Shown here piece by piece: positions 610 through 45,643 of a stretch of 47,112 nucleotides of DNA; position 1 is the first letter of the stretch, and each line of letters begins with the position of its first letter. This DNA is from Escherichia phage e4/1c. The stretch lies in the sequence record NC_024210.1. One strand, 5' to 3'. The position numbers and the translations under genes were made by a program. The notes under the pieces are model-generated. The model was not told the DNA's origin, ran no database searches, and saw nothing but the letters and a program-made list of their open reading frames with translations.

Positions 610-2178
610 TTGAAGACATTAGTTTGGGAAGAAATGACGCCAGCCGAAAAGCTGGCAGTTAAGGCGCTATCCACTCACAGCTTCGAGGGATTCCTTAGGG
701 TGTGGTTCCAGCTATCTCAATCAGAACGATACATTCCTAACTGGCACCATAAATACCTATGCAGAATCATTGATGAGATAGTTTCTGGCGAGAGGAAGGA
801 TACGATTATAAATATTTCGCCGGGAGCCGGAAAAACCGAGATTACATCGATACACTTTCCGGTTTATTCGATGCTTAAGCTGAAGAAAGTAAGGAACCTT
901 AACCTTTCGTTCTCTGATAGCCTTGTAAAGCGCAACTCTAAGCGTGTTCGCGACCTTATCAAGTCAGTGGAGTTTCAAAGTCTTTTCCCATGCAGGTTTG
1001 GGACCTGTAAGGATGATGAAATTCAGGTTCTGGATGATTCTGGAAAGGTTAAATTTGAATCCATATCCAAGGCAATTGGCTCTCAGATTACGGGTAGTCG
1101 TGGTGGTTATATTACAGACACATATAGCGGATGCATCATGCTAGACGATATCGATAAAGCCGATGATATGTTTAGTAAGGTAAAGCGCGAGTCTGTTCAT
1201 ATGCTGCTAAAGAACACCATTCGCTCTCGTAGGGCAAGTAGCTTAAAGGGTAAATCAACTCCAATTATATCAATTCAGCAAAGGCTTCATACGCAGGATT
1301 CAACGTGGTTCATGACTTCTGGCGGCATGGGTATCGACTTTGATGTGGTTAAAATACCAGCACTGGTTACTGAGGACTATGTGAATGAGCTTCCTGACTG
1401 GATTCGCGAGCAGTTCGAAAAGGACGTCCTTTCATCTGAATCAGTTGAGCGTGACGGGGTCAGGTACTATAGCTACTTCCCGCAAAAGGAATCTGTGCAT
1501 GACTTGGTCGCCATGTGGGACTCAGACCCGTATACATTCCTAAGCCAGTACCAGCAAGCGCCAGTAGCCTTAGGTGGAAACCTGATTAACGTAGATTGGT
1601 TTGTTCGTCTTGATGAGAATAACAGGCCGCCAGTCAAGTATGACTACCGATTCATCACGGCTGATACTGCATTAACCACTAAGAGCTATAGTGACTATTC
1701 AGTGTTCATGTTGTGGGGAGTAAAGGACAGGAAGGCCTACGTGCTGGACATGGTTCGAGGTAAGTATGAGAGCCCGGAGCTAGAGAAGACGCTTGTTGAA
1801 TTTGAGGCCAAACACCGAGCAAACAACAAGACTAACGGCATCCTTAGGAAGATTATCATAGAGAAAAAGGCTTCAGGCATAGGTCTAATCCAGTCAGCGA
1901 GCAGGACGATGCGCACACCTATTGAGCCATACATCCCTGATGTCGACAAGCTTACTAGGGTTATGAGTGCACTGCCGCAGGTTAAGGCTGGTAACGTATT
2001 CCTACCGCAAGAAGCACCATGGCTAAATTCTTTCTTGTCTGAGTTTGCCGCCTTCACTGCCGATGGAACTCACAAACATGATGACATCGTGGATACATTC
2101 ACCATGGGCGTAAACCTTGAGTTGAACTTAGCAGATGATCCAAAAGCCAGGTTAATGAGGTTAGCCGGAGTTAAGTAG
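610..2178 (+). CDS. terL: terminase large subunit
   Basis: 522 aa; Walker A-like SPGAGKTE near N-terminus, acidic nuclease-type C-terminal half, position before portal; start may be TTG 610 or ATG 634. Confidence 0.85.
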   Translation: MKTLVWEEMTPAEKLAVKALSTHSFEGFLRVWFQLSQSERYIPNWHHKYLCRIIDEIVSGERKDTIINISPGAGKTEITSIHFPVYSMLKLKKVRNLNLSFSDSLVKRNSKRVRDLIKSVEFQSLFPCRFGTCKDDEIQVLDDSGKVKFESISKAIGSQITGSRGGYITDTYSGCIMLDDIDKADDMFSKVKRESVHMLLKNTIRSRRASSLKGKSTPIISIQQRLHTQDSTWFMTSGGMGIDFDVVKIPALVTEDYVNELPDWIREQFEKDVLSSESVERDGVRYYSYFPQKESVHDLVAMWDSDPYTFLSQYQQAPVALGGNLINVDWFVRLDENNRPPVKYDYRFITADTALTTKSYSDYSVFMLWGVKDRKAYVLDMVRGKYESPELEKTLVEFEAKHRANNKTNGILRKIIIEKKASGIGLIQSASRTMRTPIEPYIPDVDKLTRVMSALPQVKAGNVFLPQEAPWLNSFLSEFAAFTADGTHKHDDIVDTFTMGVNLELNLADDPKARLMRLAGVK

Positions 2179-2218
2179 CACGAATTGCTAAACACAAGGC
2201 TCATGGATGAGCTATTAT
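2176..2218 (+). promoter_or_regulatory. palindrome-type promoter unit (TAGCACGAATTGCTA, 22 bp, TATTAT) upstream of HNH gene
   Basis: palindrome 2176-2190 starts on terL stop codon TAG; -10-like TATTAT 2213-2218. Confidence 0.5.
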
Positions 2219-2241
2219 TAAAAGAAATGGAGGCGATTAAG

Positions 2242-2720
2242 ATGATTGAAAGATTCTTTGTAGATGATGATTTTTTTGTTAGGTGGGCTGACGGCCCAAA
2301 CAAGGGCAAGGTGGCACAAAAGATATCAAGGAATGGTTACGCAACGGTAAGGGCAAATGAAAAGGTAATGATGGCTCACAGAGTTGTCTATGAGTTAATG
2401 GTTGGTAATATACCTGACGGTATGGACATTGATCACATAAACCACAATAAGCTTGATAATAACCCATCGAACTTAAGGTGTGTAACAAGGTCAGAAAACA
2501 TGAGGAATATGAAAAAACCAGCAATAACACTAGCGGATTTACCGGGGTAACATTCAACAAGTCAAAAGGTAAGTGGCAGTGCCAGGCGCAAATAGATGGA
2601 AAGTATAAGTACTTAGGTTTGTTCGATGATTTAGATCAGGCTATATCAGCAAGGAAGAGATTTAATATTGATAATGGATTTCATGAAAATCATGGCAAGA
2701 CACTAAAAGCCAATGCGTGA
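2242..2720 (+). CDS. HNH-AP2 homing endonuclease, reading frame interrupted by -1 shift at A6 tract (2512-2517)
   Basis: HNH motif region HRVVYELMVGNIPDGMDIDHINHNKLDNNPSNLR in frame of 2185..2550; AP2-like part NTSGFTGVTFNKSKGKWQ continues in ORF 2478..2720; intact paralog at 26791..27294 shows the two parts are contiguous. Confidence 0.6.
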
Positions 2721-2726
2721 TACAAT

Positions 2727-2750
2727 GCCCCTTACTCAGGGGCTTTTTTA
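2727..2750 (+). terminator. rho-independent terminator
   Basis: GC stem gcccc/ggggc followed by T6. Confidence 0.7.
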
Positions 2751-2763
2751 TTGGAGAAATTAC

Positions 2764-3930: not shown

Positions 3931-3974
3931 GGTTAAGATTGGCGAAGGCTCAATTCAAACGGAGGTTGTAATTA

Positions 3975-5838: not shown

Positions 5839-5849
5839 GGAGTCTTAAT

Positions 5850-9991: not shown

Positions 9992-10393
9992 ATGAATGAA
10001 GAAGTAATTGCGTACATGCGCACGCTTTACCCTCCCCTTAAGAGTCAGCCAGATGATGTTCTTAACGCATGGATTGAGGTGGCTAAGCTTTTTATCTGTC
10101 TGGATAAGTTTGGCGACAAGCAGGTTCAGGCATTGGCATTCTACACGCTTCACTTGCTTAGCCAGGATATCGCACTTAATACTGAGAGCGATTCAAGCCA
10201 GACATCCTCTGAGCGGGTTAAGTCCTACTCACTTTCAGGCGAGTACACGATTAGCTATGATACCAGTACTGCTGCTGCGAGCTCATCTAACCTTGAAGCA
10301 TCCTCGTGGGGTAAGCTTTACATTGATTTGATGCGTCGCAAGGTTGGCCGCTGGGGTTTGATTACCTCTGGTGGGTCGAGGTGCTACCGATGA
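9992..10393 (+). CDS. putative head-tail connector (gp6-like adaptor)
   Basis: 133 aa from ATG 9992 (RBS GGAGAT); motif ALAFYTLHLL as in phage gp6-type head-tail connectors; gene order. Confidence 0.45.
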   Translation: MNEEVIAYMRTLYPPLKSQPDDVLNAWIEVAKLFICLDKFGDKQVQALAFYTLHLLSQDIALNTESDSSQTSSERVKSYSLSGEYTISYDTSTAAASSSNLEASSWGKLYIDLMRRKVGRWGLITSGGSRCYR

Positions 10394-23227: not shown

Positions 23228-23267
23228 TTTGTATTCCTTATTAAGTATGTTTCGTTTCGATGGAGTA

Positions 23268-23311
23268 ACTATAGCAAAGGCCGATGCGGGAGTCTTTAGC
23301 AAATCGTGCTA
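23268..23311 (-). promoter_or_regulatory. palindrome-type promoter unit for lipoprotein-RBP operon
   Basis: minus-strand TAGCACGATTTGCTA (23297-23311), 23 bp, TATAGT, then CCATCGAAACGA leader. Confidence 0.5.
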
Positions 23312-23315
23312 TTTG

Positions 23316-23760: not shown

Positions 23761-23804
23761 CGGTCAATAAAAATGTTGACTGTACGGTCAATAAAAATGT
23801 TGAC
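23761..23804 (+). promoter_or_regulatory. tandem 20-bp operator-like repeat (CGGTCAATAAAAATGTTGAC x2)
   Basis: two identical copies separated by 4 bp; each contains inverted arms GTCAA/TTGAC; second copy provides the -35 of the early promoter. Confidence 0.6.
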
Positions 23805-25077: not shown

Positions 25078-26046
25078 ATGAGCTTCAAGGTTTACACTAA
25101 CGATGAGTTAACCAATGAAGCCTACCATCAGGAGTCAGATCATGTGTCTGGTTCTGGTCTGGCTCACATTTTCTCAACTTGCCCAGCTGCACACAAGTTC
25201 TCTGAGCATGATGACGAGAGTAAGGCACTTAAGTTTGGTACGTTGGCCCACACGGTAATTCTTGAGAACTCTGCGTTCGACGCAACTTATTACCGGCAAC
25301 CAGCGCAGGAAGAGTTTGAAGACCTGATCACCAGCAAGACTGCATTAGCCGCAAGACTTAAGGCGATGGGAATTACAGGCACATCAGGTAAGGATTACCC
25401 TGAATTAATGGAGATGCTGACACTGACCGGTGAATCACTAAACGTATGGTGGGATATCCAGCGATCTAGCGAGGTTAAAGCTGAAGCCCGAGAGATTGTA
25501 TCAGCTAAGGACTTTGACACCGTACAGGCTATGAGAGAGGTTCTATGCGGCATTCCTGCTTACAATGCCATAGTTAACAGTAAAACCGCTCAGCGAGAGT
25601 TATCAATCTTCGGTGAGATTAATGAGTGCGGAGTTAAGGTAAGGCTGGACCATGTTGATGTTGTTGGTGATAAAGTTGTGATCACAGATTACAAGACAAC
25701 ATCAGACGCATCTCCTGAATGTTTTGGTAGGTTGGCGGCTAACTATGGCTACTTGCTTAAGATGAGTTTACAGCGCGATCTATTTGTGCGTGCGTTCAAT
25801 GAGAAGCGCAAGGTTGTTGTCCAGTTACTGGCTCAGGAGAAAAAGGCACCATACCTTCCAATGCTTTACACATTATCAGATGCGCACATTGCTTTAGGTC
25901 GCAGGCAGTATATGGAAGCATTGGCAACATACAAACAGTGCAAGAAGTTTAATGTCTGGCCCGGTTACAACGCAATTGAGGATTCTATGGAGTTGCAGGT
26001 TCCAGAGTTTTATATGAAGAAATACGAAAACAGCACGAATAGCTAA
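25078..26046 (+). CDS. PD-(D/E)xK-type exonuclease (recombination exonuclease)
   Basis: 322 aa; motif VRLDHVDVVGDKVVITDYKTT; directly upstream of Erf. Confidence 0.6.
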   Translation: MSFKVYTNDELTNEAYHQESDHVSGSGLAHIFSTCPAAHKFSEHDDESKALKFGTLAHTVILENSAFDATYYRQPAQEEFEDLITSKTALAARLKAMGITGTSGKDYPELMEMLTLTGESLNVWWDIQRSSEVKAEAREIVSAKDFDTVQAMREVLCGIPAYNAIVNSKTAQRELSIFGEINECGVKVRLDHVDVVGDKVVITDYKTTSDASPECFGRLAANYGYLLKMSLQRDLFVRAFNEKRKVVVQLLAQEKKAPYLPMLYTLSDAHIALGRRQYMEALATYKQCKKFNVWPGYNAIEDSMELQVPEFYMKKYENSTNS

Positions 26047-26073
26047 AACAACATTAAATCGGTGAGGTATATT
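26031..26073 (+). promoter_or_regulatory. degenerate palindrome-type promoter unit upstream of erf
   Basis: CAGCACGAATAGCTA (overlaps exonuclease C-terminus), 22 bp, TATATT, then CCTCATCGACAACGAGAGGA. Confidence 0.4.
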
Positions 26074-26101
26074 TACCTCATCGACAACGAGAGGAAGAAA
26101 T

Positions 26102-26749
26102 ATGAAGACTTCGGAAAGTAATAAGTCAGTTTTACAGGCGCTTTTTAAGGCCCGCACAGGCTTCGCTAAGGCGGCAAGAGACAAGCAAAACAGTCACCTT
26201 AAGAATCGATACGCTACACTTGACTCCATGCTGGAGGCCGTAGTGCCAGCGCTTGATGACAATGACTTAATGATTATGCAGAGTATGTTAGAGACATCAA
26301 CTTCTGATAATCTTAATGTCGAAACAACTCTTTATCACGTTTCTGGTGAGTGGGTTAGCTTCTTTATGATTATGCCGATTGTTAAGAAAGACCCGCAAGG
26401 CGTAGGCTCAGCATTCACATATGCACGACGCTACTCATTGGCCGCAGCGCTTGGAATTAGCCAATCAGACGACGATGCTCAGATGGCGGTTAAGAGTGTA
26501 AAGGACTGGAAGCGAGAAGTAGAGAAGGCAGAGACTCGCGATGAACTTGTAGAGGTTTACAAGGCATGTAAATCACAAGCCGATGCCGCAACATGGGGTA
26601 TCGTTGAGAAAGCTATCATCGAAAAGCTAGCTGAGATAAAAATGGCATCAGCAAGTGGCTTCAACCCAGCAAAGCCTAAAGAAGTAACTAAAGTTGTTGC
26701 AAATGCACCGAGTGAGGCTGTAGAATCACAATCAATAGAAAAGTTCTGA
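26102..26749 (+). CDS. erf: ERF-family single-strand annealing protein
   Basis: 215 aa; motif GSAFTYARRYSLAAALG characteristic of Erf-type recombinases. Confidence 0.75.
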   Translation: MKTSESNKSVLQALFKARTGFAKAARDKQNSHLKNRYATLDSMLEAVVPALDDNDLMIMQSMLETSTSDNLNVETTLYHVSGEWVSFFMIMPIVKKDPQGVGSAFTYARRYSLAAALGISQSDDDAQMAVKSVKDWKREVEKAETRDELVEVYKACKSQADAATWGIVEKAIIEKLAEIKMASASGFNPAKPKEVTKVVANAPSEAVESQSIEKF

Positions 26750-30468: not shown

Positions 30469-30492
30469 TATGTAAATTCTCCATTTGTAAAA

Positions 30493-30507
30493 TAGCACGA
30501 ATTGCTA
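30493..30507. promoter_or_regulatory. palindrome TAGCACGAATTGCTA in 5' region of tail fibre gene (atypical placement)
   Basis: perfect copy about 25 bp upstream of tail fibre start codon, downstream of a TACAAT -10-like hexamer on the minus strand. Confidence 0.4.
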
Positions 30508-30532
30508 AAGTGGATTGTAGCATCTTTCAGGC

Positions 30533-30557: not shown

Positions 30558-31482
30558 AGCTATTCAATAAGTCACTCGCTTTGTATATTCGCTTCCTTAC
30601 ACCTGACTTGAATGAGTACTCATCATTAGGGATTACCACATCAATATTACGATCATCAGCAACGGCGAGTAAATCGAGAGAATGAAGAGTGCATGCAATA
30701 CGTAACTTGGAGTCTTTGAGCGCATAAGCAACCATTTCCATGTTGTAACTGGAGTAGCAAACAAGCACACAGCGGTTCCTAGTAGCGAGATGAACACGAT
30801 AGCCGTCAATGAAATTATCGACCAGATAAGCGTACTCATTATCCTTAAAGGAACCAATAACAGCCACAGACTGACGAGTGTAATCTTTTGCAGCATAACT
30901 AACATCCTCCTCTTCATTTATAAACATTACATTGCACATTTCTTCTGATATACCATCACTATAAGCCATGAAGCAAGGTATTGCATGGATTAATTCACCG
31001 GATTTTGTCTTACCAACATCAAATCCAAACTCGCTATAAATACCCTCGTATGTACTGAGCGGTGTTGATTCTACTCTTTCTGTCCTTTCCATTATTTCTA
31101 CGCATCTTTCGTGGTCAATCTGTGCGCCCATCTTGTATGGTGATGTTCTTGATGCTCTGATATTTGCGCTTTTTATTACTTCAACGGGAACCAGGTTTAG
31201 CCAGTCACCAAGAGCATTAATTGATTCACTAAAAGATTCACCTCTCAGCTTTTGAACCCACAAAATTCCATCTCCTGATCCGCATTGGTTGCAAATGATG
31301 CCACCATCACCAGGCTCACTAACCTTATCAGTCCAACGACTCCTGTCATTACCTCCACAATACAAGCAAGGTTGGTGTTTCTTTGTCTTGAAAAAATTGG
31401 GGTCAGCGCCGCAAATCTGAACCATTGCATCAGCCCACAAACCTTTCATCTTCTGCAAAACTTCTTTCTTGTCGTGATTCAT
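30556..31482 (-). CDS. putative DNA primase (zinc-binding plus TOPRIM-like)
   Basis: 308 aa; N-terminal Cys cluster PCLYCGGNDRSRW ... GGIICNQCG; adjacent to helicase region. Confidence 0.5.
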   Translation of the reverse strand: MNHDKKEVLQKMKGLWADAMVQICGADPNFFKTKKHQPCLYCGGNDRSRWTDKVSEPGDGGIICNQCGSGDGILWVQKLRGESFSESINALGDWLNLVPVEVIKSANIRASRTSPYKMGAQIDHERCVEIMERTERVESTPLSTYEGIYSEFGFDVGKTKSGELIHAIPCFMAYSDGISEEMCNVMFINEEEDVSYAAKDYTRQSVAVIGSFKDNEYAYLVDNFIDGYRVHLATRNRCVLVCYSSYNMEMVAYALKDSKLRIACTLHSLDLLAVADDRNIDVVIPNDEYSFKSGVRKRIYKASDLLNS

Positions 31483-31534
31483 TTTCTTTAATCCAATGAA
31501 AAAGGTTGCACCGATTATGGCACAACCTTAATTG

Positions 31535-32008
31535 TTACTCTTTAGCTTTTCGTGCTGCTTCGTTTGCTGCTTTAATTTTTCGCCATGAGCGACACTCTGG
31601 TTTGGTGGCTAATTCAGCATCAGTAACCACGCGTAGCATGTGTCGCTTTTTGCAACGAAGAGTCAGAGGCTTACCGTTGCCGTCAAACTGAAGGTCTGGC
31701 CGGCAGAATGTAGCCCTAAATCCTTCACCAGTTCGCTTATATCGATTATGTGCAAGTTGAGCGCCGCGGGCTGAAATCATTCCTCGAGTGCACCACTCTT
31801 CCACGGTCTGGCGAGTAACCTTTAACTGCTTAGCGAGATTTGCCTTACTGCCATAGAAGTCCAATACAATCTCAAGTCGAGCCCTTAGTCCAGCCCTTAC
31901 TTCATCCTTTAATACATAGTACCCTGAAGGTCGTTTGCGTGGCTTTTTATCTTCCTTTCGGATGGTTCCGTTATTGCCGTTAAGAGTACGTTTATCGACT
32001 TGATTCAT
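31535..32008 (-). CDS. HTH DNA-binding protein, candidate transcriptional regulator
   Basis: 157 aa from ATG 32008 (RBS GAGGTGA); HTH-like SKANLAKQLKVTRQTVEEW; basic; divergent from helicase gene. Confidence 0.5.
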   Translation of the reverse strand: MNQVDKRTLNGNNGTIRKEDKKPRKRPSGYYVLKDEVRAGLRARLEIVLDFYGSKANLAKQLKVTRQTVEEWCTRGMISARGAQLAHNRYKRTGEGFRATFCRPDLQFDGNGKPLTLRCKKRHMLRVVTDAELATKPECRSWRKIKAANEAARKAKE

Positions 32009-32022
32009 TTTTATCACCTCAA

Positions 32023-32065
32023 TAGCACTTTTTGTTAAACATTAGTTTCATTGGTTGTTATTATA
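32023..32065 (+). promoter_or_regulatory. palindrome-type promoter unit upstream of helicase
   Basis: TAGCACTTTTTGTTA 32023-32037, about 21 bp, TATTAT, then AATCGAACGAAC leader; palindrome lies 15 bp upstream of divergent HTH gene start. Confidence 0.5.
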
Positions 32066-32101
32066 ACGTCAATCGAACGAACATGAAAGGCATTTAAAAA
32101 C

Positions 32102-34045
32102 ATGACTATGCGCTTGAAAACAATACAGAAACAGATTGAAGAAATGGGTGAAGACAAGATCAAAGAGATTCAAACTAAATTCACCTCATATAATGGCATG
32201 ATTCCTTATAGCTATCAGTGTGTAATGTATAATGAGATTGCCAAGCGTATTGGTAAATATAAGCACCCGTTCATCGCAATGGCTTCAGTATCAGCTGGTA
32301 AAACTCTAGTTTTTGCCATGGTCGCTAAGCGCTGCTCTGAGATTGGTTTGCCAATGCTTCTACTTGCTCGTCAGGCTGAGCTTGTTAGTCAGAATGCTTC
32401 TGAGATTTCAGATTATGGTGTGCCTAACTCCGTTTACTGCTCAGGTCTTGGAATTAAGTCATCTTATTTTCCTGTAATTGTAGGCTCTGAGGGTACAGTT
32501 GTTGGTGGCCTTGATAAGGCGCTTGGTGACTTCTGTCCTGCTGTTGTGGCAATAGATGAGTGTCATCATCTGGATGATCAAGATATTGCAGAAGCAATAG
32601 ACAATAATGAGACATCACAGCAAGCTAGAGATAAAGGCCGGAGCCAGTACACGATAATTCTCCTCACGTTAATGGAGAGATGCCGCGCTAAGTATGGGCG
32701 TGAACTTAGGATATTTGGCCTGACTGGCTCTCCTTTCCGCGGAACAACACCAATTGTTGTGGAGAACCTTAAGGAGCTTGGGTTCTGGCGTGAAACGGCG
32801 ACTAATATTGATACCAACTATCTGGTTGAGTTCGGCTCTGTTGTACCCACAAATTTCGGGTCTACTGATGGTGTTGGCTATGATCTGTCTGAGTTTGACA
32901 CTTCAGCAGATGATGGTGTGCAGGACTTCACGAAATCTCAGCTAGAGGCAATGGAGAAGAAGATTCAGCAGTCAGGCACAATGACAGCAGAGATAATGAA
33001 GAAGGTATGGTTGGCAGCAAAAGATCGTAACGGCGTTCTTGTAACTTGCGCAGGCGAGCGACACTGCAAGGAGGCCGCAAGCTACCTTCCAGAGGGTGAG
33101 ACTTACTGCATAATTACTGGCAAAACTGGAGAGAAGCAGCGCAAGGAGCTACTGGATAAGTGCTTCTCTGGGGATATTAAATTTTGTTTTCAAGTTCAAG
33201 CTCTGACTACTGGTGTGTCAGTTCCACCATGGGATACTAGTGTAATTCTTCGCAAGATTGGTAGCCTCACGCTCCTGGTTCAGCTACTTGGTCGAGGAAT
33301 GCGTAAGCTTAAGAAGCTCCATGAAGATAAAGGAATGGTCAAGAATGACCACCTTGTATTGGATTTTGCTGGAACTATGGATTCAATGGCATCCCTTTAC
33401 TTCAACCCAATACTTGAACAGGCCCAGTATCAGCTACGCAAAAGTAATGGTAAAGAGATGAAGCAGTGCCCTGTTTGCGGCACTGAAAATAGCTTCTACG
33501 CTCGTCGCTGTATGCGTGTTGATGAGAACAATAAAAGGTGCGAATATTTCTGGGTTAGCCGCACATGTGAAGACCAAAAAGACCCGAGGACAGGAAAGGT
33601 TACCGTGAAAGGCTGTGGAGTTCAGAATGACGTTGCAGCTAAGATTTGTAGAGGTTGTGATTGCACCCTTCTAGATCCGAATCTTAAGTTAAGCGGAAAA
33701 CATTACAGAAAAAATGATTGGTTTGACGTTGTGGATTTCAAGGTTGGACTAACAAAGAACCAATCAGGAATCATCTACAACTACGTCCTTGATGATGGCA
33801 TGGGTGGGACATTCAAAGCTCATGAGGTTTTCTTTGTAGAGTCTGACCATCGAGTATGTAAAACGCTCTGGTTGAACAATGGAATTAAAGGTCACGTAGT
33901 CGACATGAACGCTAAGCGATATATGGCTGCATATCGCAATGCTCGCAAGATTATGGAGTATGCGCAGTACATCCATGCTCCTAAGAGGGTAACTCACCGC
34001 AAGACCGCTAAAGGTGGCGATAATATTGCTAATAAGGAGTTCTAA
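32102..34045 (+). CDS. superfamily II DNA helicase with C-terminal zinc ribbon
   Basis: 647 aa; Walker A SVSAGKTLVF, DECH box VVAIDECHHL, motif VI QLLGRGMRK, C-terminal CPVCG ... CRGCDC. Confidence 0.8.
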   Translation: MTMRLKTIQKQIEEMGEDKIKEIQTKFTSYNGMIPYSYQCVMYNEIAKRIGKYKHPFIAMASVSAGKTLVFAMVAKRCSEIGLPMLLLARQAELVSQNASEISDYGVPNSVYCSGLGIKSSYFPVIVGSEGTVVGGLDKALGDFCPAVVAIDECHHLDDQDIAEAIDNNETSQQARDKGRSQYTIILLTLMERCRAKYGRELRIFGLTGSPFRGTTPIVVENLKELGFWRETATNIDTNYLVEFGSVVPTNFGSTDGVGYDLSEFDTSADDGVQDFTKSQLEAMEKKIQQSGTMTAEIMKKVWLAAKDRNGVLVTCAGERHCKEAASYLPEGETYCIITGKTGEKQRKELLDKCFSGDIKFCFQVQALTTGVSVPPWDTSVILRKIGSLTLLVQLLGRGMRKLKKLHEDKGMVKNDHLVLDFAGTMDSMASLYFNPILEQAQYQLRKSNGKEMKQCPVCGTENSFYARRCMRVDENNKRCEYFWVSRTCEDQKDPRTGKVTVKGCGVQNDVAAKICRGCDCTLLDPNLKLSGKHYRKNDWFDVVDFKVGLTKNQSGIIYNYVLDDGMGGTFKAHEVFFVESDHRVCKTLWLNNGIKGHVVDMNAKRYMAAYRNARKIMEYAQYIHAPKRVTHRKTAKGGDNIANKEF

Positions 34046-34434
34046 TGGTTAAGGTTTTTCACGACAAAACAAGCACGGACAAGGCTAAAGAGGTTGTTCA
34101 CCAAATAAATTCAATAGCTTGGGTTCGCCACAACCATCCAGAGATATTTGCTTTTCACGTGAAGAATGAAGGTCTCAAGTCTATCGGCACAGCAATGAAG
34201 GACAAGCAGGAGGGAGTAATTAAGGGTGTATCAGATATTCTACTGATTGGACCAAATGGCTTTGCCGCAATAGAGCTTAAGCGAGCAATAAAATCAGATA
34301 GCAAGGTTTCAAAGGAGCAAAAGGAGTTCCTGGAAAAGGTATCAGAAACAGGAGGTTACGCGGCAATCTGTTATGGGTTTGAAATGTTTAAGTTGGCAAT
34401 TGCAGATTATCTATCAAATAGCACGAATTGCTAA
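34045..34434 (+). CDS. VRR-NUC domain nuclease
   Basis: 129 aa; GVSDILLIGPNGFAAIELKRA ... KEQKEF pattern typical of VRR-NUC PD-(D/E)xK nucleases. Confidence 0.6.
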   Translation: MVKVFHDKTSTDKAKEVVHQINSIAWVRHNHPEIFAFHVKNEGLKSIGTAMKDKQEGVIKGVSDILLIGPNGFAAIELKRAIKSDSKVSKEQKEFLEKVSETGGYAAICYGFEMFKLAIADYLSNSTNC

Positions 34435-34461
34435 AGAGATTTCGCAAGGATGCGATATAGT
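34419..34461 (+). promoter_or_regulatory. palindrome-type promoter unit
   Basis: TAGCACGAATTGCTA, 22 bp, TATAGT, then TTCATCGAAACGAAGAGAGAG leader. Confidence 0.5.
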
Positions 34462-34492
34462 TACTTCATCGAAACGAAGAGAGAGAAACAAA

Positions 34493-35108: not shown

Positions 35109-35109
35109 A

Positions 35110-35152
35110 TAGCACTTTTTGTTAAAACTAAAATACAAGGATGGATTATATT
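35110..35152 (+). promoter_or_regulatory. palindrome-type promoter unit
   Basis: TAGCACTTTTTGTTA, 22 bp, TATATT. Confidence 0.5.
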
Positions 35153-35182
35153 AATTACATCAGCAAATGAGAGGGTTAAGAG

Positions 35183-35544: not shown

Positions 35545-35798
35545 ATTTACCTGGTCTAGATTTTGATGAGAGTAAGTATCAGGTTGTGTTTTTTGGTGAG
35601 AAGCCTTATCGGAAGATTCCTTTCTCTGAGTGGATTCCTCCGGACTACCTCGATGTACTGGTGCAAATTGAGATTGGTAAGGCTGAGTTGATGTACTACT
35701 CACCTGGCTGCAATATGATGATGCCTAGTGAGTATTCTCCAGCAATTGCTGCGCTTGAAACTGAGTTTCTTGATTACTGGCTAAAAGAAGTTAAATAG
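35541..35798 (+). CDS. hypothetical protein (85 aa)
   Basis: ATGA overlap; stop TAG is first triplet of next palindrome. Confidence 0.45.
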   Translation: MNLPGLDFDESKYQVVFFGEKPYRKIPFSEWIPPDYLDVLVQIEIGKAELMYYSPGCNMMMPSEYSPAIAALETEFLDYWLKEVK

Positions 35799-35838
35799 CA
35801 CTTTTTGTTAAAACATATCGCCAGGGATGGCTTATAGT
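35796..35838 (+). promoter_or_regulatory. palindrome-type promoter unit
   Basis: TAGCACTTTTTGTTA, 22 bp, TATAGT, then TCATCGAAACGAGAGG. Confidence 0.5.
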
Positions 35839-35866
35839 GTGTTCATCGAAACGAGAGGCGGCTCAG

Positions 35867-35935
35867 ATGAAAACATTACTACCATTGCTGGCAGTGCCAG
35901 TAACCTTTATAATCATGTACTTCATAACCTGCTAA
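35867..35935 (+). CDS. possible 22-aa hydrophobic leader peptide (uORF)
   Basis: ATG 8 nt after conserved ACGAGAGG RBS; MKTLLPLLAVPVTFIIMYFITC; ends 14 nt before main ORF start. Confidence 0.25.
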   Translation: MKTLLPLLAVPVTFIIMYFITC

Positions 35936-35949
35936 TAGGAAAATATAGA

Positions 35950-37077
35950 ATGGCTATCGCTAAAATCACTAACGAACAACTTAAAGAAGAACTGGCAAAC
36001 GGTATGACTAACAAAGCAATCGCAGAGAAGTACGGCATGAACATTCGTAACGTAGAACTGCGCCGGAGCAAGCTGTCAAAATCTGGCGAAGGCCACGGAA
36101 ACGAAGGCATAAAGAAGCTAGTTCCGGATGGATACATGGTTAAAGGCACTTCAACCATGATTGATGCAGAAGGTAACGAGAAGATTCGTTGGGTTAAGAC
36201 TAGTGTTGATAATGAACGCCTTGAAGAGATTATTACTCAGGCACGCGAAGCATTTTGCTCAGAACTTCCTAAGGCCGAGCTAGTTAAAAATGAAAATGTT
36301 AACTTTGATGAGACATTAACTCTTTACCCTGTATTTGACATTCATATTGGTATGATGGCCCACGCTCACGAAGCTGGCGAGAACTACGACACGGCAACAG
36401 CTGAAAAATTGATGAACTCATACTTTGATTACTCAATCAGCAAGGCTCAAAATTCAGAGAAGGCGGTATTACTGATTGGCGGTGACTTCCTTCACTCTGA
36501 TGGCCTTGACGCTGTTACACCAGCAAGTAATCACGTACTTGATCAGGATAGTCGATTTGCTAAGTTGGTTTACGTTGCAATTCGATCTCTTCGAGCTACA
36601 GTAACTAAAATGCTTATGAAGCATAAAGAGGTTGAGATTCAGGTTATTGAAGGCAACCACGACCAGGCATCAATGATTTGGCTGCGCGCTGCAATGGCTG
36701 CATTCTATGACAATGAGCCACGAGTCCATGTTGATGTAAGTCCTGCAATCATGCACAAGACTCGATATGGATCAACTTTGCTTGGTTATACACATGGCCA
36801 CACCATGAAGAAAGCTGAGGGTCGACTCGCTGCCATGGCTAATGATTATCGCAAGGACTTCGGCGAGTGTGAGTTCGTTTACTGCCACTCAGGTCACTTC
36901 CATCATGCAACAGTAACCGAGTGCACGCTTGGTATTGACGAAGTTCACCCGGCATTAGCAAGCAAAGATGCATACGCAGCACGAGGCGGATGGAGAAGTT
37001 ACCGTCAGGCAGCAGTGATTGTTTACCACAAAGAATTTGGCGAGATTGGTCGATTCATTTACCGTCCGGGGATGTAA
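35950..37077 (+). CDS. HTH-domain plus calcineurin-like metallophosphoesterase
   Basis: N-terminal GMTNKAIAEKYGMNIRNVELRRSKL (HTH-like); phosphoesterase motifs VFDIHIGMMAH, GGDFLHSDG, EGNHDQ, GYTHGH, CHSGHFHH; start at ATG 35950 because ORF-track start 35827 would lie inside the promoter. Confidence 0.65.
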   Translation: MAIAKITNEQLKEELANGMTNKAIAEKYGMNIRNVELRRSKLSKSGEGHGNEGIKKLVPDGYMVKGTSTMIDAEGNEKIRWVKTSVDNERLEEIITQAREAFCSELPKAELVKNENVNFDETLTLYPVFDIHIGMMAHAHEAGENYDTATAEKLMNSYFDYSISKAQNSEKAVLLIGGDFLHSDGLDAVTPASNHVLDQDSRFAKLVYVAIRSLRATVTKMLMKHKEVEIQVIEGNHDQASMIWLRAAMAAFYDNEPRVHVDVSPAIMHKTRYGSTLLGYTHGHTMKKAEGRLAAMANDYRKDFGECEFVYCHSGHFHHATVTECTLGIDEVHPALASKDAYAARGGWRSYRQAAVIVYHKEFGEIGRFIYRPGM

Positions 37078-37267: not shown

Positions 37268-37268
37268 A

Positions 37269-37311
37269 TAGCACTAATTGCCAAAACACAAATCAAAAGA
37301 TGGGGTATATT
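37269..37311 (+). promoter_or_regulatory. palindrome-type promoter unit
   Basis: TAGCACTAATTGCCA, 22 bp, TATATT, then CCATCAAAACAAAACGAGAGGA. Confidence 0.5.
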
Positions 37312-37344
37312 TACTCCATCAAAACAAAACGAGAGGATACAAAG

Positions 37345-41040: not shown

Positions 41041-41079
41041 TATCATCTCTCTCTAAATGCCCCGAAGGGGCTTGATTAT

Positions 41080-41259: not shown

Positions 41260-41297
41260 TTTTTAGCCCTTTTAATGTATTTCGTTTCGATGAAGAG

Positions 41298-41341
41298 AAT
41301 ATATCAATTTTTGTTGTTAAGTTCTTTAGCAAAAAGTGCTA
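41298..41341 (-). promoter_or_regulatory. palindrome-type promoter unit for ATPase operon
   Basis: minus-strand TAGCACTTTTTGCTA, 23 bp, TATATT, TTCATCGAAACGA. Confidence 0.5.
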
Positions 41342-41458
41342 TTAAAGACCAACCAGACATTTGCCAACTACAACAGCGATTGCGCCCATGAAGCCAAAGA
41401 AACCAAACTTAATTACTTGTTCCATTACCGCATCAACTGCTTTAGAGATGTTTTTCAT
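41342..41458 (-). CDS. small membrane protein (38 aa)
   Basis: MKNISKAVDAVMEQVIKFGFFGFMGAIAVVVGKCLVGL; start chosen at ATG 41458 with RBS AAGGTGA. Confidence 0.4.
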   Translation of the reverse strand: MKNISKAVDAVMEQVIKFGFFGFMGAIAVVVGKCLVGL

Positions 41459-41495
41459 TTTGTTCACCTTAGTGTTTGTCTTCTTGATGGAAACA

Positions 41496-41539
41496 AATAT
41501 ACCCGCCGAAGCGGGTAGTGTCATTAGCAAAAAGTGCTA
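41496..41539 (-). promoter_or_regulatory. palindrome-type promoter unit
   Basis: minus-strand TAGCACTTTTTGCTA, 23 bp containing hairpin cccgc-ttcg-gcggg, TATATT. Confidence 0.45.
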
Positions 41540-41540
41540 T

Positions 41541-41894: not shown

Positions 41895-41919
41895 TACTAT
41901 TTTCCTTTTTGGTTTGTTA

Positions 41920-42222: not shown

Positions 42223-42256
42223 CTTAGTGATTCCTTAGTTTCGTTTCGATGAGATG

Positions 42257-42299
42257 AATATACAGTAAAAGCCCCGAAGGGCTTTAGCGATTCGTGCTA
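42257..42299 (-). promoter_or_regulatory. palindrome-type promoter unit
   Basis: minus-strand TAGCACGAATCGCTA, 22 bp containing hairpin, TATATT, TCATCGAAACGAAAC. Confidence 0.5.
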
Positions 42300-42449
42300 T
42301 TTCTTTGCTGCTTTTGCAATTGCCTTCTGGACGATATTGAAGCTCTCAATCAAATCTTCTTTGAAGTAGTCACCAACAGGCCAACCCTTACCGCTGTACT
42401 TGGCTATGGTTTCTAGATCGTAATAGTTCAAGTCAGATGGCTTTAGCAT
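42297..42449 (-). CDS. hypothetical small protein (50 aa)
   Basis: not in ORF track; start adjacent to upstream stop (TAAATG); stop TAG is first triplet of palindrome. Confidence 0.3.
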   Translation of the reverse strand: MLKPSDLNYYDLETIAKYSGKGWPVGDYFKEDLIESFNIVQKAIAKAAKK

Positions 42450-42916: not shown

Positions 42917-42943
42917 GTCTATCTCCTCGCTGTTGATGTAATT

Positions 42944-42987
42944 AATATACCCAATCAGGACTGAATGTTCATTAGCAAAAAGTGCTA
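42944..42987 (-). promoter_or_regulatory. palindrome-type promoter unit (first of minus-strand block)
   Basis: minus-strand TAGCACTTTTTGCTA, 23 bp, TATATT. Confidence 0.5.
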
Positions 42988-43011
42988 TTCGTTCGATTTA
43001 TGGATTGTTGC

Positions 43012-43105
43012 GGATATTGCAATGATTAGATTCACCTTTGCGCACATAGCAATATTGCATCTATTGCAATGATTTTCTGTACTGTTGCGAAAATGGCAAT
43101 GATTG
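43012..43105. repeat. cluster of short palindromic iteron-like sites (ATTGCAATGATT family)
   Basis: TATTGCAATGATT at about 43015 and 43063, GCAATATTGC at about 43049, GGCAATGATT at about 43094. Confidence 0.6.
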
Positions 43106-43179
43106 ATGGATTGATGGAATGAAGGAGGACGCATCAACTGGTTGGTTGGTTTTCTCGCTCGCTCGGAGATAATCATTTG

Positions 43180-43330
43180 TATACGCGTAGTCCGCTGTCT
43201 ACCGATTGTCGACCGTATCCAGATTTACATTTGATACGCCTTGATACAATCCATATACATTAAAACATCCTTATATATAAAGGACTTAGACTATTATTAT
43301 TATTATATATAGTATTATGTATATATGGCG
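43180..43330. repeat. regulatory repeat region B (homologous to 23316-23470)
   Basis: TATACGCGTA plus 60-bp near-identical AT-rich segment shared with region A. Confidence 0.7.
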
Positions 43331-43381
43331 TATCCTTTGTACGCCACTATATAGGTGGGTTTGCTTAAATTTCTATTTTTA

Positions 43382-43398
43382 TTCCTACATTGTAGGAA
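43382..43398. promoter_or_regulatory. perfect 17-bp palindrome TTCCTACATTGTAGGAA with adjacent half-site
   Basis: perfect inverted repeat; half-site TTGTAGGAA repeated at about 43409. Confidence 0.5.
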
Positions 43399-43545
43399 TG
43401 GGACTACGTTGTAGGAAAATATAGGGTGTATCGCCAGAAATGCACTAATAATTTGGATACGGCGAGTACGCCATGACTACATCCAGCAATGAAGCGGCCT
43501 ACGGATGAGAAAATGTAATTATTTATCGAATACATAAAAAATACC

Positions 43546-43574
43546 TTGATATACACGTATCTACTTGCTATAGT
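43546..43574 (+). promoter_or_regulatory. sigma70-type early promoter (TTGATA, 17 bp, TATAGT)
   Basis: canonical spacing; followed by CCATCGAAACG leader and gene at 43614. Confidence 0.6.
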
Positions 43575-43613
43575 CACTCCATCGAAACGCGATAAAAAAC
43601 GAGAGGAATTAAA

Positions 43614-44156
43614 ATGAGCAAGTCAACACTTGGTGAAGTAATTCGATTCATGGCTAAAAAAGCACTCCAGTCAGAGAGCAAGGAGTGCAGAGTTCCAGTT
43701 CGTTCTATATTTAAAGAGGTGCGCGGAGAGGATTACCCAGAGGTTGACGTTAATGAGAAGGATGGATTAAAGAAAACAATTAAAAGTCGATCAATGACTG
43801 AGTTAAAAAACTCATACATTTACAATACAGTTTCACGCATGACTGAGCTGAGAGAAGCGAATGTTAGAGCTAGATATAAATTCATCTGGCTTGATGAAGA
43901 CAAAGAGGAGACAACCCCAGCTGCGTATGACGGTGACGGCGCAGATAAATACTTGGTAATCTATATTGAGAATGGCTCAGTCGAACCCAGGGCAAAGCAA
44001 AAGGAGAAGGCAAAGCAGGAGCAGGCCGCAATCGATAGGTTTAAGGCTCGACTTCTCAAGCTATCACCTAACGTGCTGGAGTTTGAAGGCGATGAGCTGA
44101 CTGGCGCAGTTAAGGCTATCCGCATGTATCAAGAGATGATCAAGGAGTTTAACTAA
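43614..44156 (+). CDS. hypothetical early protein (180 aa)
   Basis: RBS GAGAGGA; first gene after promoter. Confidence 0.5.
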   Translation: MSKSTLGEVIRFMAKKALQSESKECRVPVRSIFKEVRGEDYPEVDVNEKDGLKKTIKSRSMTELKNSYIYNTVSRMTELREANVRARYKFIWLDEDKEETTPAAYDGDGADKYLVIYIENGSVEPRAKQKEKAKQEQAAIDRFKARLLKLSPNVLEFEGDELTGAVKAIRMYQEMIKEFN

Positions 44157-44704
44157 TGTTTGATTTCGACGAAGATAAGTTAACTGATGACCAGGTGATG
44201 GAAGTCGCCAGGCAAGATAACCTGCCGCCACTTCGTGTGGCAATCAATGCTAATGGATACCGCCAATCATTCAAGTTCTGGCCGAGCGCCGAAGAGATGC
44301 TGTGCGTCAAGTTGAGCTACAAATACGGCGTCGTAGTGCATAAAATTAAGCACTTATGCGGCAATACAGGAATGCTTTACGTGAGCCAGCTATACCGGCA
44401 GATCAGAGAGGTCCAGCCATTCGTTGGTCGTGATGACATATTCAACGACCTTAGTAATATCATTCTGCCGTCACTCCAGGACGCCGGAATCACATGCCGG
44501 ATTGGCGATCAGGTGTTTGCGCATCCGTACCTGGTGGAAATGGATGAACGAGACGTGTACAGATGGTGCAGTCAGTACCTATCCGACGCACCAAGCTCAC
44601 ACTACGTGCGACCGCAGACAACAATCCATGGCTATGATGCCGATGAGGTGGAGAAGGCCATCCAGTTCTACCGGAAAGCGAAAGCTCTCCTGAATGGTGA
44701 ATAG
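44156..44704 (+). CDS. short paralog of P-loop NTPase gene (N- and C-terminal modules only, no ATPase core)
   Basis: MFDFDEDKLTDDQVMEVARQDNLPPLRVAINANGYRQS matches N-terminus of ORF 39457..41040; C-terminal LY..R.V.PF...LP.L...TC.IGD.V..P also shared. Confidence 0.6.
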   Translation: MFDFDEDKLTDDQVMEVARQDNLPPLRVAINANGYRQSFKFWPSAEEMLCVKLSYKYGVVVHKIKHLCGNTGMLYVSQLYRQIREVQPFVGRDDIFNDLSNIILPSLQDAGITCRIGDQVFAHPYLVEMDERDVYRWCSQYLSDAPSSHYVRPQTTIHGYDADEVEKAIQFYRKAKALLNGE

Positions 44705-44744
44705 CACGAATTGATAAACAAAAAACAGGGTATTCAGCTATGAT
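44702..44744 (+). promoter_or_regulatory. palindrome-type promoter unit
   Basis: TAGCACGAATTGATA starting on stop codon TAG, 22 bp, TATGAT, then CTATCAACCAAACGAGAGGA. Confidence 0.5.
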
Positions 44745-44775
44745 TACCCTATCAACCAAACGAGAGGAATAAAAT

Positions 44776-45009
44776 ATGATCGTAATTAACCTGTCTGAAA
44801 GGCAAGCAAAAGAGATTAAAGCGGTAATGATGCACTGCCTTAACCGAAAGCTATTTAGCTCCTCAGAATCGCTTACAGAGGTCGTAGAGCAGATTCGCAA
44901 TCAAGAGTTTGAAGATGTTCTGCCGTGGGAAGAGGATTTAGCCTGGCTTGAGTACGAGAAGATTTGCACGGTTCTTTCAGGTTGCCAGCTGGCTAGCCAA
45001 TACAAGTGA
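44776..45009 (+). CDS. hypothetical protein (77 aa)
   Basis: ATG after conserved leader. Confidence 0.45.
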   Translation: MIVINLSERQAKEIKAVMMHCLNRKLFSSSESLTEVVEQIRNQEFEDVLPWEEDLAWLEYEKICTVLSGCQLASQYK

Positions 45010-45127
45010 CCATCTACGAACACAAATTTAGTAGCAGCGGCATACCAATGTTGCTGCACTACGTAAGCGAAAAATACGCAATATTGATGCAGAAGACGCA
45101 TGGCGGGACAATAGCGAGGATTGAGAT

Positions 45128-45283
45128 ATGAATGAATTTAAAATTGAAGATATTATTCTTGATGATGCTGTTTATTATCACGAGAATGATGGCTTTGATA
45201 CTGAATGTATGGCTGATGATGGCATTGCTTTGATTATCGAGCGAGATAAGTTCGGCGAGATCGTTCAGTGGAGTGAGCAATAA
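45128..45283 (+). CDS. small highly acidic protein (51 aa)
   Basis: not in ORF track; RBS GAGGA; 15 of 51 residues Asp/Glu. Confidence 0.35.
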   Translation: MNEFKIEDIILDDAVYYHENDGFDTECMADDGIALIIERDKFGEIVQWSEQ

Positions 45284-45603
45284 TGAGCAAATACGACAAA
45301 GAGATTATTGGCTTGGATGGAACCAAGACGACAGTTGATGTATATCGTGTTATCGCAGCATTCGGCGTAACCGACCCAGCGTTACAGCACGCCATCAAAA
45401 AGGTACTGTGCAGCGGCATTCGAACGCGACACAAGGGTTACACCACTGACATCAATGAGGCCATTGTGTCGCTTCAAAAGGCTGTGGAATTTCATGGGCA
45501 AAGAGGCGCGCATGTTCAGGAGATTATTGATAAGTATCGCGATGGCTCTAAGATTCAGAAGGTAGTAAGCAATAGGAATTACCTAGATAGCTGGAGCAAA
45601 TAG
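45283..45603 (+). CDS. hypothetical protein (106 aa)
   Basis: TAATG overlap; stop TAG is first triplet of next palindrome. Confidence 0.45.
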   Translation: MSKYDKEIIGLDGTKTTVDVYRVIAAFGVTDPALQHAIKKVLCSGIRTRHKGYTTDINEAIVSLQKAVEFHGQRGAHVQEIIDKYRDGSKIQKVVSNRNYLDSWSK

Positions 45604-45643
45604 CACGAATTGCTAAACATAAATCGCAAGGATGCGTTACTAT
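45601..45643 (+). promoter_or_regulatory. palindrome-type promoter unit
   Basis: TAGCACGAATTGCTA, 22 bp, TACTAT, then TTATCGAAATGAGACGAGGA. Confidence 0.5.

Follow-up and report, generated by a model that had tools for sequence, protein, structure and literature searches.

Recurrent promoter-like units in the sequence of Escherichia phage e4/1c resemble class II marbox promoters of the host

The sequence of Escherichia phage e4/1c (NC_024210.1), analyzed here as one stretch of 47,112 bp that we call the window, contains 15 copies of a compact promoter-like unit built from a 20-bp box and a -10-like hexamer. All 15 are in forward orientation relative to the gene downstream, and one further copy of the box is reversed. 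From the arrangement of their sequence motifs, we infer, with high confidence, that host RNA polymerase uses the units as promoters. The box resembles the marbox, the site recognized by the activators MarA, SoxS, Rob and RamA, and we think it probable (roughly 58%) that the units are class II marbox promoters read by activators of the host. Over 8 kb the window shares about 90% identity with phages JK06, AKS96, AHP42 and Rogue1; it represents a T1-like siphophage of the Rogunavirus type (Drexlerviridae), with the genome complete or nearly so. The window was compared with the genomes of Rogue1, T1, TLS, Rtp, Klebsiella phage KP1801, herni, CJ19 and Vibrio phage Vc1. The spacing statistics given below refer to 121 units, found in the window and in the first seven phages of this list, the nine units of Vc1 being counted apart.

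A preliminary description of this DNA had reported at least 14 gene starts preceded by a 15-bp palindrome, TAGCA-N5-TGCTA, lying 21-23 bp upstream of a TATAnT hexamer. The existence of this family was confirmed. The window contains 8 exact matches to the motif where 0.05 are expected, and 17 matches at no more than one mismatch where 2.2 are expected; the copies are intergenic, co-oriented with genes and kept in relatives. All the motif coordinates given at the time were correct when rechecked, the count now being 15 forward units and the reverse copy. Core copies number 13-17 per genome (9 in Vc1) as against fewer than one in shuffled controls. What is conserved, instead of the 15-bp palindrome, is a 20-21 bp asymmetric element, aATAGCACnnWTTGYTAAAAC. 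In the full layout of the window units, aaATAGCAC(G/T)WWTTG(C/T)TAAA(A)C is followed after about 18 more bases by a -10-like hexamer and, 5-6 bases further on, by CATCGAAACGA; a Shine-Dalgarno sequence and the start codon come last. As a check for bias in the search expression, the search was anchored on the right half of the element; the two halves co-occur, while anchoring on GCAC was diluted by background and added little.

The best -10-like hexamer lies 21-23 nt past the 15-mer in 105 of the 121 units and at exactly 22 nt in 86. Re-inspection of the outliers, in which correctly spaced hexamers had been out-scored by others, raised the number within 21-23 nt to about 111. The spacing described earlier is kept in relatives; only its supposed exception, a distance of 24 at the erf gene, has to be dropped, since the best -10 there (TATATT, 26068-26073) lies at 22 nt. 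The hexamer profile is T89 A100 T87 A71 A49 T100 (percent). Counting from the hexamer, 77% of the units have G at -14 and 67% have T at -17; C occupies -1 in 71% and A occupies +1 in 89%. A CA dinucleotide lies exactly 7 nt downstream of the hexamer and is followed by TCGAAAC(G)AA. This conserved CA marks the predicted start of transcription, all starts in this analysis being predictions of this kind. The geometry of -10, extended -10 and start is that of a textbook sigma70 promoter, which bears out the earlier view of the units as promoter-like and of the host sigma70 RNA polymerase type. Also borne out was the statement that they have no good -35: matches to TTGACA at this position average 1.7 out of 6. 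Relative to the predicted +1, the center of the box falls at -40.5 in 86 units, at -41.5 in 11 and at -39.5 in 8 of 105, in agreement with the class II position previously proposed for a protein-binding element. Isolated operons on the opposite strand, such as 23227-22020, have only a unit of this type upstream. No copy of the motif occurs in the structural-gene block (about 2.7-22 kb), as had been noted for the late structural genes, and from gene content the assignment of the units to an early/middle class is plausible.

Past the -10, the units share an initial transcribed box, (C)ATCGAAACGA(A), positioned at the predicted start and common to all Drexlerviridae subfamilies and to the units of the T4-like phage Lw1 described below. 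Examples in the window are at 34468-34478 and 35845-35855 on the plus strand and at 23261-23251, 41291-41281 and 42250-42240 on the minus strand. It might serve in the leader or in translation, or be a second operator. The predicted leaders are 17-34 nt long and often open with AUCGAAACGA. A second recurrent motif, AACCAATCAGGAG, present in 9 copies in Vc1 and also in units of T1, TLS and KP1801, forms the ribosome-binding region of many unit-driven genes.

Conservation within the box is asymmetric. Numbering from the first base of the 15-mer, C6 is fixed, while position 10, its mirror image, holds T; opposite the fixed G3, position 13 varies among C (59% of the copies), T (37%) and A (4%). 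The flanks are unequal as well, with AA upstream and AAAAC downstream. This asymmetry led to the rejection of the model, put forward in the preliminary description, of a palindrome bound by a dimeric reader. A displaced -35 element was also considered for TTGCTA and rejected: a 22-bp spacer is incompatible with this function, and TGnnnT, the hexamer found 17 bp downstream, does not resemble a -10.

The same asymmetric pattern is found in the marbox, which its activators bind as monomers with two helix-turn-helix motifs. Its published consensus is GCAHWWWWTGYYAAA (PMC6900184), employed in searches in the form gcannwwntgnnaaa (PMC12052159). In the micF promoter the marbox has been described as CACT-7X-AAA (PMC8811837), with the A site GCAC and the B site CAAA, the latter overlapping the -35 region (PMC9178005). 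The phage core, GCAC(T/G)WWTTGYTAAA, matches the 15-mer marbox at 15 of 15 positions in the T group of boxes and at 14 of 15 in the G group. The fixed GCAC and TAAA, the C or T at position 13 (Y in the consensus) and positions 7-9, which are free or W, all coincide with the marbox pattern. A 20-mer consensus, AYnGCACnnWnnRYYAAAYn, which Martin and colleagues are said to have formulated in 1999, agrees with each of the 15 window units at 12-14 of its 14 specified positions. Searched with at most one mismatch, this 20-mer gave 15 matches versus 0.8 in random sequence. Furthermore, the phage T-group box, ATAGCACTTTTTGCTAAAAC, is identical to the marRAB marbox, ATGCCACGTTTTGCTAAATC, at 16 of 20 positions.

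The correspondence extends to the promoter as a whole. In micF of E. coli K-12, ACAGCACTGAATGTCAAAAC is followed after 18 bp by TAGAAT; in the phage units, ATAGCAC..TTGYTAAAAC is followed after 18 bp by TATAnT. In the cryo-electron microscopy structure of Rob and RNA polymerase at micF, Rob contacts -47G, -45A, -38G, -37T, -35 and -34 (PMC9178005). Given the predicted +1, the phage bases G3, A5, G12, Y13, A15 and A16 fall at exactly these coordinates. Class II sites are forward-oriented and centered around -41 (PMC8811837, PMC12052159, PMC10268841), and genuine class II promoters have on average 1.9 of 6 matches to TTGACA (PMC10268841). By sequence, then, the units show the box, the orientation and position, and the -10 without a -35 that characterize class II marbox promoters.

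Under the reading that we favor, the 20-bp marbox, ATAGCAC-nnW-TTGYTAAAAC, would lie forward at about -50 to -31 and substitute for the -35 hexamer. The sigma70 -10 would be located 18 bp past the box, often with the extended -10 G at -14, and transcription would start at the CA 7 nt after the hexamer. A monomeric host activator of the AraC family would bind in two successive major grooves, reading GCAC as the A site and YTAAA as the B site. This activator could be Rob, which is constitutive, MarA or SoxS, when induced, or, in Klebsiella, RamA. It would touch region 4 of sigma70 and the C-terminal domain of the alpha subunit and so recruit the host RNA polymerase, as in the solved micF structures.

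A search for a MarA-like open reading frame (ORF) in the phages gave nothing: with E. coli MarA as phmmer query, the best hit among 4738 six-frame segments of nine Drexlerviridae genomes had E = 0.38. A phage-encoded MarA/AraC-like protein was thus rejected as the reader, MarA giving only noise against the six-frame ORFs of the nine Drexlerviridae and of Lw1. Subfamilies whose proteins are only about 45-50% identical have the same invariant element, and so do phages infecting Escherichia, Klebsiella and Vibrio; a terminase-related, otherwise unrelated Vibrio phage has zero copies. In a scan of IMG/VR, contigs with multiple copies were confined to the 42-52 kb size class. Complete units were also present in T4-like phages, namely Escherichia phage Lw1 (Pseudotevenvirus, NC_021344.2) and 178-kb Klebsiella/Enterobacter phages. 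The three Lw1 units, at 10295, 10911 and 92339, all on the minus strand, run in the direction of early genes, and the search of this phage for a homolog of the Drexlerviridae regulator discussed below found none (best E = 0.26). Two of the three have an inserted terminator hairpin, and their box-to--10 distance is exactly 29 bp (18 + 11). Since this amounts to the usual 18 bp plus one helical turn, the helical phase is kept, as expected if the bound protein faces RNA polymerase. Because the box is invariant across hosts, because no phage MarA was found and because Lw1 has the units in the absence of the regulator, a reader supplied by the host is favored, with MarA, SoxS, Rob and RamA as the obvious candidates. 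The product of Lw1 gene 166 (gp166), encoded behind one of the units, is 66% identical to a Webervirus ORF, suggesting that cassettes of promoter plus gene travel between phage families. The motA and asiA genes are absent from the Lw1 annotation.

Several points weigh against a role of the host activators. T1-like phages grow well on laboratory strains, and with strong -10 or extended -10 elements the promoters could largely do without an activator. Rob is reported to be inactive and sequestered as long as ligand is lacking (PMC9178005), and MarA and SoxS levels are low unless induced by stress. The marbox is a degenerate motif: an E. coli genome has about 10,000 loose matches to it, most of them non-functional (PMC11633057). 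The phage box is stricter than the host consensus, with A at box position 3 and TT at positions 11-12 fixed, and this tighter form could reflect an additional or different reader. Vibrio phage Vc1 retains the box, in a host for which a marbox-binding protein would have to be assumed. Finally, the searchable literature holds no start-site, binding or genetic data for any T1-like phage.

The most obvious alternative is a reader encoded by the phage itself, which might activate middle genes from a class II position or shut off early genes as a repressor at "stoperator" sites. Two such proteins had been proposed in the preliminary description. One, an alleged helix-turn-helix (HTH) phosphoesterase at 35827-37077, proved to be a DNA-repair exonuclease (phrog_704) with no HTH match. 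The other is a conserved Cro-like "transcriptional regulator" (31535-32008, minus strand; phrog_2856). Among nine phages with the same invariant box, its recognition helix differs greatly (TRQTVEEW, SNQTVQGW, NLKTVWGW and CCVRLTNAY are examples), so that the protein was judged unlikely as the reader; it might act through its invariant N-terminal arm, DKRTxNGNNGTxRGxDKKxRKRP, and not through the HTH. Moreover, the units persist in Lw1, which lacks a homolog, an asymmetric box is unsuited to a symmetric dimer, and it would be a coincidence had a different fold evolved to recognize a perfect marbox placed exactly in the register of micF. Were the regulator required, a bootstrapping problem would arise too, as most non-structural genes, including those at both genome ends, carry the box. 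We regard a phage-encoded reader as unlikely on these grounds. The N-terminal arm of the regulator, though invariant, is predicted to be disordered, and a C-terminal motif, GxRAxFCRPDLxFDxNGK, is invariant too; whatever partner the arm may bind must be highly conserved.

A little less probable still is that the units are activator-independent (extended) -10 promoters, the box serving as an UP-like contact for RNA polymerase or as a decoy by which replicating phage DNA draws MarA, SoxS and Rob away from the host stress and efflux regulon. The -10 hexamers are indeed strong (TATAGT, TATATT, TATAAT), with G-14 in 77% and T-17 in 67%, T1-like phages are generally known to grow without inducers of mar, sox or rob, and some 15 boxes per genome, predicted to be of high affinity, would make an effective sink when multiplied by replication. 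UP elements, as Estrem and colleagues are said to have defined them in 1998, consist of A/T tracts between -59 and -38 with no fixed G or C; the phage box has a fixed GCAC (-47 to -44) and TTGC (-40 to -37) where that consensus has A/T tracts. An UP element has been suggested for the repeat of phage TLS (PMC11447400). A decoy would need neither the fixed 18-bp distance, nor the orientation, nor the helical phase kept at 29 bp in Lw1. Lrp, a host protein conserved across the gamma-proteobacteria, is a far weaker candidate. The outer ten positions of TAGCA-N5-TGCTA fit YAGHA...TDCTR exactly, yet the match to the whole 15-bp palindromic Lrp consensus, yAGhAwATTwTdCTr (PMC5554404), is 11 of 15: the fixed C6 and the central G/T-W-W violate W-ATT-W, and the T13 variants (37%) break a half-site. 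The 3' AAAAC flank and the strict class II register are left unexplained by Lrp as well, and a marbox explains all these features. It is just as improbable that the element acts as RNA, as a processing or stability signal or a terminator module of polycistronic transcripts. Hairpins associated with the units are real and strand-specific, and some with T runs score as terminators, but they vary in sequence and position while the box, the -10 and the CA start are fixed. The box alone would form at most a 5-bp stem, free of compensatory changes; a scan against Rfam gave no matching family; and the isolated opposite-strand operons (23227-22020) need a promoter and have only this unit. Least credible of all is a sigma54 (-24/-12) promoter, suggested by the resemblance of TAGCAC-N3-TTGCT to the sigma54 consensus, TGGCAC-N5-TTGCW. 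The shared CAC...TTGC(T/A) notwithstanding, the elements are 8 nt apart in every copy instead of the exact 10 required between GG and GC, the essential GG is AG, and the fixed hexamer 18-22 bp downstream would be left without a role; the spacing by itself practically refutes this reading.

The reading as class II marbox promoters can be further qualified by comparison with known systems. As in micF and other class II promoters on which MarA, SoxS, Rob and RamA act, the box is asymmetric, spans 20 bp and has GCAC and YAAA sites 7 bp apart; it is forward, overlaps or replaces the -35, lies 18 bp from the -10 with its center near -41, and is combined with a canonical -10 and start. Unlike micF, the phage boxes are borne by a lytic phage genome at a density of about 15 per 47 kb. 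They are far nearer to the consensus and more uniform than host marboxes, and are fused to the initial transcribed box, ATCGAAACGA, and to nested RNA hairpins. The marRAB operator marbox (class I) differs in being reversed and about 60 bp upstream of the start, the phage boxes being forward at -40.5. At lambda PRM, with cI at OR2, and at class II promoters of CRP or FNR, an activator near -41/-42 abuts sigma70 region 4 where the -35 is weak. For lambda, the N-terminal domain of cI bound to sigma region 4 is known. The predicted activator position is alike in the phage units; lambda cI, CRP and FNR, however, are dimers on symmetric sites, whereas the asymmetric phage box would best fit a reader that binds as a monomer through two HTH motifs. 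The middle promoters of T4 (MotA box, with sigma appropriation by AsiA) and the Mor and C promoters of Mu likewise form phage promoter classes in which a specific box replaces the -35 and a good -10 is kept. The MotA box is at -30, 11-13 bp from the -10, and requires the phage proteins MotA and AsiA, in contrast to the present box at -40.5; Mor and C are phage-encoded dimers, whereas a phage-encoded reader was not identified for the present box.

The repeat itself was already known. The re-annotation of phage TLS (Kropinski and colleagues 2024, PMC11447400) described a 21-nt direct repeat, aaATAGCACnnnTTGnTAAAA, in 21 copies, co-oriented with transcription, about 76 nt upstream of start codons and divided into AAA, TTT and GAA subgroups. 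Similar repeats were reported in T1, Rtp and Rogue1, only three sigma70-like promoters were found, and stoperators, enhancer-binding sites or UP elements were suggested as functions (PMC11447400). The window units correspond to aaATAGCACnnnTTGnTAAAA and are likewise co-oriented with genes and tens of nt upstream of start codons; the TLS repeat and the T1 "enhancers" (Roberts et al. 2004) are the same element as the window box. Those descriptions do not report the fixed distance to the -10 or the marbox identity, and the present genome is a new carrier. Papers on Rogue1-like phages searched solely for TTGACA-N15-17-TATAAT. Our literature search found no mapping of transcription starts for any Drexlerviridae and no link of T1-like phages to MarA, Rob, SoxS or the marbox. 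As far as we found, therefore, the fixed -10 distance is apparently undocumented, and the identification as class II marboxes is new in the literature searched.

The individual units are given here in the direction of the downstream gene, the marbox being the 20-bp box. Unit 1 (2175-2235, plus strand) consists of a marbox at 2175-2194, GTAGCACGAATTGCTAAACA, whose TAG is the stop codon of the large terminase gene, a -10 TATTAT at 2213-2218 and a predicted +1 around 2225; it would drive the ORF at 2242-2550. Unit 2 (23251-23312, minus strand) is the sole promoter candidate for the isolated minus-strand gene pair 23227-22020. It has a marbox at 23312-23293, an extended -10, TGcTATAGT, with the hexamer at 23273-23268, a CA +1 at 23261 and the initial transcribed sequence ATCGAAACGAA. 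Unit 3 (26030-26090, plus strand) is degenerate; its marbox at 26030-26049, ACAGCACGAATAGCTAAAAC, is followed by TATATT at 26068-26073 and a CA +1 at 26080, and the unit would drive erf (ATG at 26102). Also degenerate is unit 4 (31497-31558, minus strand), which the preliminary description had missed. The marbox-like sequence (31558-31539) lies within the last codons of the regulator gene, and the hexamer CATAAT (31519-31514) is in the loop of a terminator hairpin (31529-31502). The CA +1 is at 31507 and the presumptive target is the primase gene (ATG at 31482). Clean units occupy the corresponding position in TLS and herni. Divergent from the regulator gene, unit 5 (32022-32081, plus strand) has a marbox at 32022-32041 with a 14/14 fit, TGtTATTAT with the hexamer at 32059-32064 and a CA +1 at 32071, and would drive the helicase gene (ATG at 32102).

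Units 6 to 9 are on the plus strand. Unit 6 (34418-34478) comprises a marbox at 34418-34437, a spacer hairpin, CGCAaggaTGCG, a -10 TATAGT at 34456-34461 and a CA +1 at 34468, again with ATCGAAACGAA as initial transcribed sequence. In unit 7 (35109-35169) the marbox is at 35109-35128, the -10 TATATT at 35147-35152 and the CA +1 at 35159. Unit 8 (35795-35855) is located upstream of the exonuclease gene. The TAG of its marbox (35795-35814) is the stop codon of the upstream ORF, and a hairpin, GCCAgggaTGGC, precedes the -10 TATAGT (35833-35838) and the CA +1 at 35845. The first start codon after this unit opens an ORF of only 15 codons (MKTLLPLLAVPVTFI; 35867-35914, plus strand), with a hairpin at 35885-35903. 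As the exonuclease gene starts about 100 nt downstream, this short ORF may be a leader peptide or an attenuator. Unit 9 (37268-37328), with its marbox at 37268-37287, has its -10 TATATT (37306-37311) inside a straddling hairpin (GGGGTA...TACTCC) and its CA +1 at 37318.

The four following units are on the minus strand. Unit 10 (41281-41342) has a marbox at 41342-41323, an extended -10, TGaTATATT, with the hexamer at 41303-41298, a CA +1 at 41291 and the initial transcribed sequence ATCGAAACGAA. In unit 11 (41478-41540; marbox 41540-41521) a terminator-like hairpin, CCCGCttcgGCGGG (41517-41500), adjoins the -10 TATATT (41501-41496), and the CA +1 is at 41488. Unit 12 (42240-42300) combines a marbox at 42300-42281, with its TAG as the stop codon of the upstream ORF, a spacer hairpin, GCCCttcgGGGC, with a T run, a -10 TATATT at 42262-42257 and a CA +1 at 42250. 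The marbox of unit 13 (42927-42988) is at 42988-42969, its TAG likewise being an upstream stop codon; the -10 TATATT is at 42949-42944 and the CA +1 at 42937. The last two units are again on the plus strand. Unit 14 (44701-44761) has a marbox at 44701-44720 (TAG as the upstream ORF stop), a -10 TATGAT (44739-44744) inside a straddling hairpin, AGGGTA...TACCCT, and a +1 at 44751. Unit 15 (45600-45660) has a marbox at 45600-45619 with a 14/14 fit and the upstream stop codon in its TAG, a -10 TACTAT at 45638-45643 and a +1 at 45650. Altogether, six units have a box whose TAG ends the upstream gene, and in two more the TAA of ..CTAAA serves as stop; the units are packed into minimal intergenic space.

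Inverted repeats lie in the spacer or span the -10 in two-thirds of the units. Stems of at least 5 bp occur in 33 units as against 9.2 in trans permutations, and the minimum free energy is -9.8 kcal/mol as against -4.0 for shuffled sequences. The sense strand folds better than the antisense strand (-9.8 vs -7.7; p = 4e-9), G.U pairs number 79 vs 32, and UUCG and GNRA loops recur. Examples are at 41517-41500, 42280-42269 and 31529-31502 on the minus strand and at 34443-34454, 37300-37322 and 44709-44747 on the plus strand. Those at 41517-41500, at 31529-31502 and in the 42280 region are terminator-like, and the -10 sometimes lies in the terminator loop. Because the 5' arm is upstream of the predicted start, the hairpin would form only in transcripts coming from the upstream gene. 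The hairpins look like terminators or 3'-end structures nested in the next promoter, a compact form of the "transcripton" idea. A GGATG sequence in several spacers was considered as a CsrA-like site and discarded; it corresponds to the loop and 3' arm of the variable hairpins.

The copy at 30493-30507, singled out as aberrant in the preliminary description, is so indeed: it is reversed relative to the tail-fiber gene and lies just downstream of this gene's own extended -10. That element, TGcTACAAT (30522-30514, minus strand), comes directly after the primase terminator (30557-30540). The reverse-oriented marbox (30492-30511, plus strand) covers about +1 to +15 of the minus-strand tail-fiber promoter, an operator-like position, and the arrangement is conserved in Rtp, T1 and CJ19. 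Since marboxes that overlap the core promoter are treated as candidates for repression (PMC12052159), the reverse box may, speculatively, be a repression site acting as a switch on a late gene.

The repeat has been unexplained in T1-like genomes since 2004 and is the main candidate for directing early/middle transcription, canonical sigma70 promoters being very few. The marbox promoter is well known; its genome-wide use by a lytic phage family would be new. We entertain, with somewhat less than even confidence, the broader scheme that Drexlerviridae have wired most non-structural units to MarA, SoxS, Rob or RamA through optimized class II marboxes, with stress-coupled development, titration of the host regulon, an early-to-late switch at the reverse box and mobile cassettes of promoter and gene as consequences. 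If so, phage development would depend on the stress that the cell is under, be it antibiotic, oxidative or bile stress; resistant marR, soxR or ramR mutants would be better hosts and activator-less cells poorer ones. Replicating phage DNA would titrate the activators off the host efflux regulon, reverse boxes at the late tail-fiber promoter would provide an in-built early-to-late switch, and "marbox promoter + gene" cassettes would move among phage families, as in T4-like Lw1. A lytic phage family would then clearly be employing the stress and antibiotic-resistance regulon of its host for its own transcription. As candidates for therapy against Klebsiella and E. coli, Webervirus and other Drexlerviridae are in wide use, and clinical multidrug resistance often results from over-expression of MarA, RamA or SoxS. 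Strains of this kind might prove more permissive, and combinations of phage with antibiotic or inducer could be adjusted to this. Compact, near-consensus marbox promoters with nested terminators also form a set for synthetic biology.

Of the two canonical sigma70 promoters proposed previously outside the family, that at 43546 is good (TTGATA-17-TATAGT with TG) and that at 23800 mediocre (TTGACC-17-TAAATT). The former (43546-43574, plus strand) has no marbox, precedes the first rightward genes and is likely an immediate-early promoter. The first gene behind this sole strong canonical sigma70 promoter (43614-44156, plus strand) encodes a DUF7174 protein (Pfam E = 2e-46), likely an immediate-early protein; homologs are annotated as the first leftward-end gene in JK06 and Rtp.

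HNH homing-endonuclease genes inserted in late regions carry a marbox unit of their own in Rtp (6317 and 21394), T1 (41957) and Rogue1 (12049), the Rogue1 copy consisting of the box followed by a terminator, without a -10. In T1 (around 18849, minus strand; extended -10 TGaTAAGAT) and herni (around 36716, minus strand), a complete unit points antisense into the late tail operon from the region between the major-tail and tape-measure-chaperone genes, and may be an antisense promoter. The only match in the Rfam scan was a tRNA; the window has a tRNA-Arg gene (anticodon CCU) at 46736-46811 on the plus strand, as in Rogue1-like phages.

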